A stretch of DNA of 64,000 nucleotides. Origin: Octopus sinensis. Its lineage: Eukaryota. Below are positions 40,046 through 53,444 of the stretch, piece by piece. Every line of letters begins with the position of its first letter. The stretch's first letter is position 1. The stretch is from contig NC_043007.1 of assembly GCF_006345805.1 (NCBI RefSeq), forward strand, positions 19,840,001 to 19,904,000, in the 5' to 3' direction. The position numbers were made by a program, and so were the translations under genes. The notes beneath the pieces were generated by a model. That model saw only the letters and a list, made by a program, of their open reading frames with translations, did no database searches and was not told where the DNA came from.

Positions 40046-40110
40046 GATGGATGGATGGATGGATGGATGGATGGATGGAAAGACAGACAGACAGACAGAT
40101 ATAGAAGACT

Positions 40111-40487
40111 GTGCATGGATATGTGAGTAGAAAGCTCCGAGGTGATAGTAACATCGATCATCAAAGCAGTTTATCATGGACCAATAATTGGATTGCTACA
40201 TCCCAGTTTGAAGGGTATGCGTTTGCAATCCAGGAACAGGAAATATCAACCAAGTACCTGATGCACAAAAGGGATAGAGATGCAAGAAAAGCCGTAAAAT
40301 GTGACAACCGATGCAGACTTTGTGGAGTTCACACTGAAGATATCACCCACATCATAAGCAGATGTCCGAAAATGTCATCACGATATTATCTACCGATGAG
40401 ACATGATGTTGTTGCTAGGACACTCTATAATGAAATCCGTCAGAAGGATAACCCCGAGGACAAAGAAATAAGAACCCACAATATGTT
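40111..40487 (+). mobile_element. R4/Dong-like LINE fragment
   Basis: FEGYAFAIQEQEISTKYL...CRLCGVHTEDITHIISRCP...RHDVVA. Confidence 0.85.
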
Positions 40488-40704
40488 AGCAGCAAAAATG
40501 CTACTTCTAAAATCTCTCCAAGAGATCAACGCAGTAGTTGTACTGACAAGTAGTATTCGTAGCCACTTCAACATGGCTGTCCGTTCGAATGGACTCTACT
40601 GCGATTTTTTTAACCCCAAGAAGACAAACACAAAAGAAAACAACAACGTGAGGACGTGGTACATGTAAAGTATTAGCAGACGCTCAGGGAAGGAAAGGAA
40701 GATG

Positions 40705-40739
40705 GTTTAACGTTTCGAGCAAAGTTCTTCTTCAGAAAC
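40705..40739 (-). ncRNA. Minimal hammerhead-like motif
   Basis: gttt-CTGAAGA-A-gaac(ttt)gctc-GAAA-cgt-t-aaac. Confidence 0.5.
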
Positions 40740-41086
40740 AGAGGAAAGTACAATAGAAAAGGAAGTCGGAGGGGAAAAAATCGCCAACGATTCACATTTA
40801 GTTACATTATGAAATATGCATGCATGCATGCATACATGCATACATACATACATACATACATACATACATACATACATACATACATACATACATACATACA
40901 TACATACATACATACATACATACATACATTCATACATACATACATGTATATATGTATTCACACACATTGGTACAAGGCCAGCAATTTCAGAGGAAGATGG
41001 GTTTCGGTCAATTACATCGACTCTTGGTCTTGACTCGTATTTTTAGCTTATCCACTTCGACGGGATTTGATAGATAATTATATATA

Positions 41087-52233: not shown

Positions 52234-52519
52234 ATATATATATACCTTCGAAACGCGGAGTGGACGAAACGGAGGCGGCTGAAGAAGGGGAATTTTCCTT
52301 GTGTCGTATGTCTCGTACTCTGTTTTTTTCGTTGTTTTTAAAAAATGTTCGTTTCCATAGTTCTGTTTTTATGTTTTCGTTTCTCATTGTGTTCGACGTT
52401 TTTTTTTTTTTGTTCTTTTTTTGGTGTCCTGTACCTATATATGGATGTATATATACATATAGATGTAGGTGCGTTCATATATGTATGTATATATGCATGT
52501 TTCATTTATTATTTTGTTA

Positions 52520-52550
<31 letters not shown>

Positions 52551-52594
52551 ATCTAGTTTCAGCTCACAAGCTGTGGCCATGCTGGGGCACCGCC

Positions 52595-52643
<49 letters not shown>

Positions 52644-52727
52644 TATCTAGTTTCAGCTCACAAGCTGTGGCCATGCTGCGCACCGCCATTATATATATAT
52701 ATATTATATATATATTATATATATATA

Positions 52728-53178
52728 TATGGCCAGCTGGAGGAGTGTGTCCTCCTGGGCCTAAAAACTACAGTAGCATCCACCCTTAGGGGTTAGCCAT
52801 ATTGAAATGGCAAAAATACGTCATGATGTGTTACCGCTACTGTATATAACTCACTTTGATATTTATCATTGTTTGATTTCACTTTTTCAATATCAGCGGC
52901 AGTGGACGCTGGAAAAAGTATAAGTATTTGTGAAGGAAATCTAATTCTCGGCGACAACTATGATTGTCACACGCTGACGAGAGGTCAATACCTCGAACTC
53001 GAGTCGTGTGTATCATAAGTTGAAGACGGGAAGGATGACTTCTCTTTGCAATACTGACAGGACACAGATAGTGTGTCTATGGCCAGCTGGAGGAGTGTGT
53101 CCTCCTGGGGCTAAAAACTACAGTAGCATCCACCTTAGGGGTTAGCCATATTGAAATGGCAAAAATACGTCATGATGT
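52728..53178 (+). mobile_element. Retrozyme-like non-coding element (350-nt period, about 100-nt terminal direct repeat)
   Basis: 52731-52829 is repeated at 53081-53178; internal hammerhead fold; (TA)n on both sides. Confidence 0.65.
52955..53022 (+). ncRNA. Type I hammerhead ribozyme motif, imperfect as assembled
   Basis: caactatgat-tgt-cacacg-CTGACGA-gaggt(caat)acctc-GAA-ctcgag-TC-gtgtg-t-atcataagttg. Confidence 0.7.
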
Positions 53179-53181
53179 ATA

Positions 53182-53216
<35 letters not shown>

Positions 53217-53263
53217 TCTAGTTTCAGCTCACAAGCTGTGGCCATGCTGGGGCACCGCCATTA

Positions 53264-53297
<34 letters not shown>

Positions 53298-53344
53298 TTT
53301 ATCTAGTTTCAGCTCACAAGCTGTGGCCATGCTGGGGCACCGCC

Positions 53345-53392
<48 letters not shown>

Positions 53393-53444
53393 TATCTAGT
53401 TTCAGCTCACAAGCTGTGGCCATGCTGGGGCACCGCCATTATAT

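Follow-up and report, generated by a model that had tools for sequence, protein, structure and literature searches.

A young hammerhead retrozyme family in an octopus genome with insertion ends like those of Penelope-like elements

Animal non-LTR retrozymes, described from coral, mussel and axolotl, are tandem, non-coding units of 150-450 bp with low GC content and a canonical type I hammerhead with a short palindromic stem III, and they co-exist with Penelope-like elements (PLEs) (PMC7229834). Cleavage and circles were shown for those retrozymes, whereas the octopus family reported here is described from genome sequence. The mobilising enzyme was left open in 2020, and the main text of that study has no cephalopod family and no insertion-end analysis (the words 'cephalopod', 'inverted' and 'microsatellite' occur 0 times each); its supplement may list such a family (PMC7229834). 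A preprint on 31 vertebrates, three insects and a coral links retrozymes to PLEs through co-occurrence and pLTR homology, favours local DNA expansion and describes the precise mechanisms as still to be worked out (bioRxiv 10.64898/2026.07.22.740005). We reach the same conclusion on the PLE link, but from insertion anatomy and with no homologous pLTR in 80 PLE-type stretches.

On the PLE side, EN+ elements (Penelope/Poseidon, Neptune, Naiad) are described with partial tandems, an inverted 5′-truncated copy, a 30-40-bp tail at one end and a bias towards AT-rich or (TA)n targets (PMC8557442, PMC3846280), and the making of their tandem and inverted insertions has been called undefined (PMC8557442). 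The purified protein of the PLE PAc, a predicted dimer, cleaves both strands and extends them, and it begins reverse transcription (RT) internally, at two sites that lie downstream of the hammerhead and bound the tail (PMC11167929). The octopus retrozyme resembles these elements in all of these insertion features and differs in having no ORF, a circularly continuous unit, a tail of 46-49 nt, start sites 171 and ~218 nt beyond the cleavage site, and a one-site-per-arm rule that could be counted. Putatively non-autonomous elements of Chlamys, e.g., MRC1, are likewise non-coding, multicopy, arranged head to tail and attributed to PLE machinery, but they resemble the 3′ end of an autonomous family, and the clade to which they belong is reported to lack canonical hammerheads (PMC8557442). 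The class is already known, and what is new here is the counted twin-priming and haplotype rules; in the literature outside subscription papers and repeat libraries, we found no report of a cephalopod retrozyme or of retrozyme insertion ends.

The window, a 64,000-nt stretch of Octopus sinensis contig NC_043007.1, holds 1.3 units of a 353-nt family with TA runs on either side. Its features are as follows.

52690..52728, no strand: (TA)n target, left
52729..53078, + strand: full retrozyme unit, 350 nt here and 353 nt in intact copies; 5′ start truncated at unit position 353/1 and blurred by the TA run
52769..52844, + strand: four-way junction, with closing stem 52769-52777/52836-52844 and three hairpins
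52824-52827 (unit 96-99): site A, in the loop of the third hairpin of the four-way junction
52828..52873, + strand: 'tail' between site A and site B, ~46 nt
52869-52873 (unit 141-145): site B
52922..53056 (approximate ends), + strand: long bulged stem prolonging hammerhead stem I, with several pairs that change on both sides in families A, B and C
52968..53010, + strand: type I hammerhead with CUGACGA, a 5-bp stem II and a palindromic CUCGAG stem III; predicted cleavage after 53005
52968-52973, stem I; 52974-52980, CTGACGA; 52981-52994, stem II GAGGT/ACCTC
52995-53005, + strand: hammerhead part GAACTCGAGTC
53079..53178, + strand: partial second unit (positions 1 to 99-101), stopping at the family's 3′ site A
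53179..53197, no strand: (TA)n target, right

An earlier note, made from the letters of the window alone, had described an element set in (TA)n whose first ~100 nt recur after 350 nt, and the repeat is there: at a spacing of 350/349 nt, 52728-52791 matches 53078-53141 at 94% and 52784-52829 matches 53133-53178 at 100%. The hammerhead motifs and all five stem pairs listed in the note were also located. The unit length of 350 nt had to be corrected to 353 nt, the modal length of the family (30/55 full monomers). As the note had remarked, two letters are missing from the core as assembled, an A behind 52995 and a C behind 53004, and no hammerhead appears among the 42 Rfam matches of the window copy at E≤5. 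The doubly deleted core is found at 2 places in the genome, the second of which is a different, indel-rich copy, and the A and C are read at full depth in all three contig sets that we guess to be RNA. Throughout the family, one-letter deletions fall in homopolymer runs (50 in 144 run positions vs 5 in 209 others) and are unevenly shared, with none in 30/55 monomers and many in a few; judging from this pattern, the double deletion of the window is probably a long-read assembly error. Having one cleavage site, the copy cannot release a monomer, a point on which the note was right, and it is therefore a dead end, an ordinary member of the family represented by a single-arm locus of the site-A type. 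The element lies within a five-copy minisatellite of ~90 nt (52517-53440) that consists of a SINE-like fragment and (TA)n(T)n.

Searching the genome with the element gave 1579 candidates, and scoring the best 40 yielded at least 137 matches at 93-100% identity. An exact 37-nt intact hammerhead core occurs 615 times, compared to 0 for the reversed control. Copies are dispersed, mostly in (TA)n, as arrays of 1 to ~10 units, so that the multimers for which the note had suggested a search do exist. We note that the loci analyzed are the top-scoring matches and not a random sample. Mean identity is 98.7% with assembly errors included, and the core of the 55 full monomers is intact in 45, has lost one letter in 6 and is changed at G8 in 4. 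Non-LTR retrozymes are characterized by a GC content under 45-50%, the lack of LTR, PBS and PPT, and target-site duplications that exceed 4 bp if there are any. The unit has a GC content of 42.8%, and its longest stop-free frame is 94 aa (in L016). The family has no fixed terminal repeats, its 5′ ends being scattered; this scatter, together with 0 genes predicted by ARAGORN on L017, ruled out a tRNA-derived SINE. One target-site duplication of 14 nt was seen, at L011, and most others are hidden in (TA)n. We are all but certain that this is a real, young, non-coding non-LTR retrozyme family. The note had proposed such a family targeting TA repeats, and multicopy, multimeric loci with mostly intact cores bear the proposal out; the family is neither single-copy nor core-less in consensus, nor are its copies always attached to a PLE ORF, the three findings that the note had named as speaking against it.

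The intact natural copy L017 matches Rfam Hammerhead_1 (RF00163) over the full model with 32.2 bits (E 1.2e-6), just below the gathering score of 34, which answers the model check proposed in the note. The window unit folds at -118.2 kcal/mol (z -6.4), a value equaled by 0/100 shuffles. The active fold of a monomer is predicted to lie 5.9 kcal/mol above the minimum-energy fold, and pairing of the palindromic stem III between two copies is predicted at -12.1 kcal/mol. The energy gap of the monomer counts against the route proposed below, but in these models it fits, together with intermolecular stem III pairing, the dimeric cleavage described for such hammerheads.

Sister families B to E, with circularly continuous units of about 350-400 nt, show 89% (B), 75% (C), 65% (D) and 66% (E) identity to the present family, hereafter family A, and the families are 63-89% alike overall. 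The fold persists in the older sister families, even where identity is as low as ~65%: core and stems are maintained with compensatory changes, and 13/66 predicted pairs are changed on both sides across families A to C, a count that reflects three lineages and few independent events. In the alignments, C3-G8 becomes U3-A8 in family D and in part of family C, and the stem III palindromes differ among families (CUCGAG, CUGCAG, ACAUGU). The junction region can be aligned across families; single-sequence folds of D and E give no matching four-way shape.

Related and unrelated hammerhead repeats also lie elsewhere in the window and near family copies. A fragment of the old sister family E is found at 40488-40628 (- strand), with 1324 genome candidates and copies ~80-85% alike. 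The fragment is contained in an open frame of 187 aa (40105-40665, + strand) with a zinc-knuckle, presumably part of a non-LTR element. Next to the fragment, at 40620-40810 (- strand), is another hammerhead-bearing repeat of ~190 nt, CTGAAGA...GAAACGTT, with 6903 candidates, which we rejected as a family member since it is unrelated to the retrozyme profile. At about 550-790 of L230, just upstream of an array of ~10 units, there is a sixth related family, F, which has a hammerhead of its own.

To describe how copies end, we mapped arms in 60 loci, 30 from the element search and 30 from a hammerhead-centered query, with overlaps collapsed by genome position. Among 70 unique 3′ ends, 39 fall at site A (unit 88-101, mostly 96 or 99), 28 at site B (unit 139-147) and 3 elsewhere, so that 67/70 ends are at two sites ~46 nt apart (46-49 nt). 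(TA)4 directly follows 64/70 3′ ends, and TA is also present at the truncated end of many single-arm loci. The 73 5′ starts, on the other hand, are scattered across the whole unit. The note had suggested a search for circularly permuted ends; the 5′ ends vary freely and the 3′ ends do not. The two fixed 3′ sites point to PLE machinery and are not evidence against a retrozyme.

Many arms are joined back to back. In family A, 20/22 such pairs combine one arm ending at site A with one ending at site B, none is A+A or B+B, and 2/22 have a damaged end (p 1.9e-6 for the A+B excess at even odds); three loci fetched later were all A+B too. The 19 single-arm loci end at site A in 15 cases and at site B in 4. 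With queries that fix one arm as B for families B and C, pairs in family B were 13 A+B, 1 B+B and 3 other (n=17), and those in family C were 7, 1 and 8 (n=16); family D, with noisy mapping, gave 3, 1 and 6 (n=10). At the inner junctions of pairs, the arms overlap by 1-4 nt, meet bluntly or are separated by an insert of 1-34 nt, and the longer inserts are mostly copied from the arms. Either arm can be the longer one (10 and 10), and the 5′ starts of both arms match in only 2/20 pairs. Fold-back (self-priming) as the sole source of the inverted arm is ruled out by arm length for 4/20 pairs; that either arm may be longer and that four pairs could not be copied from the other arm indicate that both arms were primed on RNA.

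Several details of these loci are recorded here for their own sake. Fine end positions are coupled in the 20 A+B pairs of family A: A=99 occurs only with B=141/142 (5/5), and B=144/145 only with A=93-96 (8/8). At L014, the same 12-nt palindrome stands outside the TA run on either side, as though TA tracts had been added inside a target duplication. L055/L056 comprises 42 nt of the unit (104-145), a TA run and an arm, 345 nt long, that also starts at 104, the whole being duplicated.

Set beside the EN+ PLE traits, the family has an optional tail at one end (two 3′ sites, one per arm in 20/22 pairs), inverted 5′-truncated copies and partial tandems (22 pairs and 19 single-arm loci among the 60 loci) and a microsatellite or AT-rich target (64/70 3′ ends in (TA)4); its tail of 46-49 nt, compared to the 30-40 nt usually quoted for PLEs, counts against the assignment. 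From this insertion anatomy, we consider it highly probable that the family is mobilized by PLE-type machinery. Intact RT+GIY-YIG ORFs of 775-781 aa are present in the same genome, and copies of these elements also end in (TA)n.

For a partner, we used a Pfam GIY-YIG search of this genome, with the best 150 of 5029 candidates scored, and covered other PLE clades by two further searches with proteins. Scanning with retrozyme-family profiles found no autonomous PLE with a homologous end in 80 PLE-type stretches, a small share of thousands of candidates, in which some stretches overlap and two are not PLEs; the scan returned only nested retrozyme insertions, and the readable PLE ends are unrelated sequence, several with hammerheads of their own. 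No RT+GIY-YIG ORF was contiguous with a family copy when two PLE proteins were compared by tblastn with all family loci, the matches being nested or separate fragments. A sister copy beside an intact PLE ORF (L087) was rejected as a partner because it is a separate insertion, as is the copy beside a PLE piece at L211.

Two PLE loci met in this search are of separate interest. L081 (1674-5377) represents a young PLE family. Its RT+GIY-YIG frame of 781 aa is intact and overlaps a preceding frame of 479 aa for which Pfam gives no match, and the hammerhead of this PLE has U3-A8 and the ACAUGU palindrome in common with retrozyme family D. L126 is a back-to-back pair of an autonomous PLE with 3′ ends ~41 nt apart; it is one locus, and the extra sequence may be flank.

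We then asked what RNA served as the template. Haplotypes were compared at 13 polymorphic sites, with 17/60 loci left out, mostly as overlaps. Units agree in 1476/1503 comparisons within arms, 905/911 between arms of one locus and 90081/104670 between loci; at the site split 54:54, the agreement is 89/92, 44/45 and 2729/5749, respectively. Four of five long arrays carry a private variant in all aligned units, and L231 has none array-wide. For a new variant to reach every unit, a one-unit bottleneck and subsequent re-amplification are needed; a circle supplies both. Of the 55 monomers, 52 have no deletion at the cleavage junction, so that units run seamlessly through the site. Starts of family-A arms within 5 nt of the cleavage site number 2/73, compared to 2.3 expected, in a sample that favors arms crossing the site. 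One haplotype per locus together with seamless passage through the cleavage site favors a circular template, and from these genomic patterns we regard circular RNA as the likely main template. None of the listed sequencing runs with the element is on record as RNA. In the contig sets, whose RNA status is a guess and whose contigs carry no strand, ends or level, neither joints nor piles of ends were seen; record 21 of X3 has 383 nt (353+30) and closes the unit, as tandem DNA or linear multimers would also do. This contig would be a closed assembly cycle if k=31.

The strongest competitor, though an unlikely one, is an uncleaved linear multi-unit transcript from master arrays as the template of PLE-type mobilization, with the hammerhead incidental or trimming some RNAs. 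Such a template has biochemical precedent: purified PAc protein initiates internally on unprocessed RNA, hammerhead mutants are without effect on insertion, cleavage is dispensable and uncleaved RNA is the main substrate (PMC11167929), and 8/9 dimers tested in the 2026 preprint failed to cleave (bioRxiv 10.64898/2026.07.22.740005). Uncleaved RNA accounts for the seamless passage through the cleavage site no less well than a circle does, and patterns longer than one unit in the arrays L047, L026 and L230 agree with a linear template and speak against a pure monomer circle. However, each of several haplotypes stays the same over 4-10 units and in the two arms. Such uniformity needs the one-unit bottleneck and is beyond what linear copying can produce, and the core has been kept with compensatory change over ~35% divergence. 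As to the longer patterns themselves, units 2 and 4 of L047 (1182-2494) have two variants missing in units 1 and 3, a pattern to be expected from a dimeric circle or from the duplication of two units.

Family C, whose arms were sampled with a query without the hammerhead, bears on the same question. Of its 22 arms reaching the cleavage site, 18 pass it and 4 stop within 5 nt (1.6 expected, P 0.08); 3/22 stop 1-2 nt past the predicted site (0.45 expected, P 0.011, in a narrow window picked post hoc). These stops hint at cutting by the ribozyme at this position, and a part of the templates had probably been cut and were linear.

A second alternative, in which short PLE end fragments insert and arrays then grow by DNA-level unequal crossing-over, is a model discussed in the preprint as proposed for vertebrate retrozymes (bioRxiv 10.64898/2026.07.22.740005). 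It is compatible with the whole-locus duplications at L055/L056 and L278 and with the unit sub-patterns of L230. We nevertheless find it improbable for a family this young, in which the arms form a continuous range of lengths between 62 and 1662 nt, pairs often have more than one unit in either arm and no parent PLE end was found in the 80 PLE-type stretches.

The unit could also be an ordinary pseudo-LTR of an unsampled autonomous PLE, its copies being 5′-truncated tails. The end signature is that of PLEs, and the GIY-YIG candidates scored were the best 150 of 5029; yet what lies upstream of the hammerhead is another unit, in head-to-tail series of up to ~10, and PLE fragments near copies are set off by TA runs or wrongly oriented, leaving this reading very improbable. 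In L1 twin priming, the arms are not known to overlap. Mobilization by a LINE (e.g., RTE- or R4-type) with L1-like twin priming would account for 5′ truncation and microhomology junctions, and LINEs have been named as alternative mobilizers of animal retrozymes (PMC7229834), but the 3′ ends are internal and fixed at two sites, of which each arm uses one, the sequences of the arms overlap, and there is no poly(A) or fixed simple-repeat tail, so that this is the least credible explanation of all.

Returning to a PLE-mobilized, probably circular template, we propose that multi-unit arrays would be transcribed, that their hammerheads would cut, probably while paired via the palindromic stem III, and that the monomer would be ligated to a circle, as in known retrozymes. 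A PLE protein, the putative enzyme, would bind the four-way-junction region, a candidate RT-recognition element, and nick both strands of the (TA)n target, and two cDNAs would be primed, one at site A and one at site B, where arms are observed to end. Each cDNA would roll a variable distance through the ligated cleavage site, leaving the tandem arms that we observe, and microhomology or short templated inserts would then link the two back to back, a repair route suggested by the junctions seen. Alternatively, a single cDNA would be joined to the far flank, as in the window. The window copy is a 5′-truncated 1.3-unit insertion, likely written into a TA repeat by a PLE RT/GIY-YIG protein from a likely circular 353-nt RNA. 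More tentatively, and with somewhat less than even confidence, we suggest that a dimeric PLE protein may sit on one 353-nt circle via a four-way junction kept in at least five families, with its RT subunits starting at A and B on opposite target strands and rolling independently, and that the family may be a fossil record of that reaction.

The value of the family is mechanistic, and it is not a new kind of system. Being short and very young, with hundreds of intact cores, it yields countable rules, namely one start site per arm, one haplotype per locus and passage through the cleavage site, and with its 353 nt it can serve as a minimal substrate when a PLE reaction is set up in vitro. If the reading of a dimeric PLE protein on a circle is true, it would explain the PLE tail, the inverted pLTR and the tandem arrays together, and PLEs would be the mobilizers of animal retrozymes without any common pLTR sequence.
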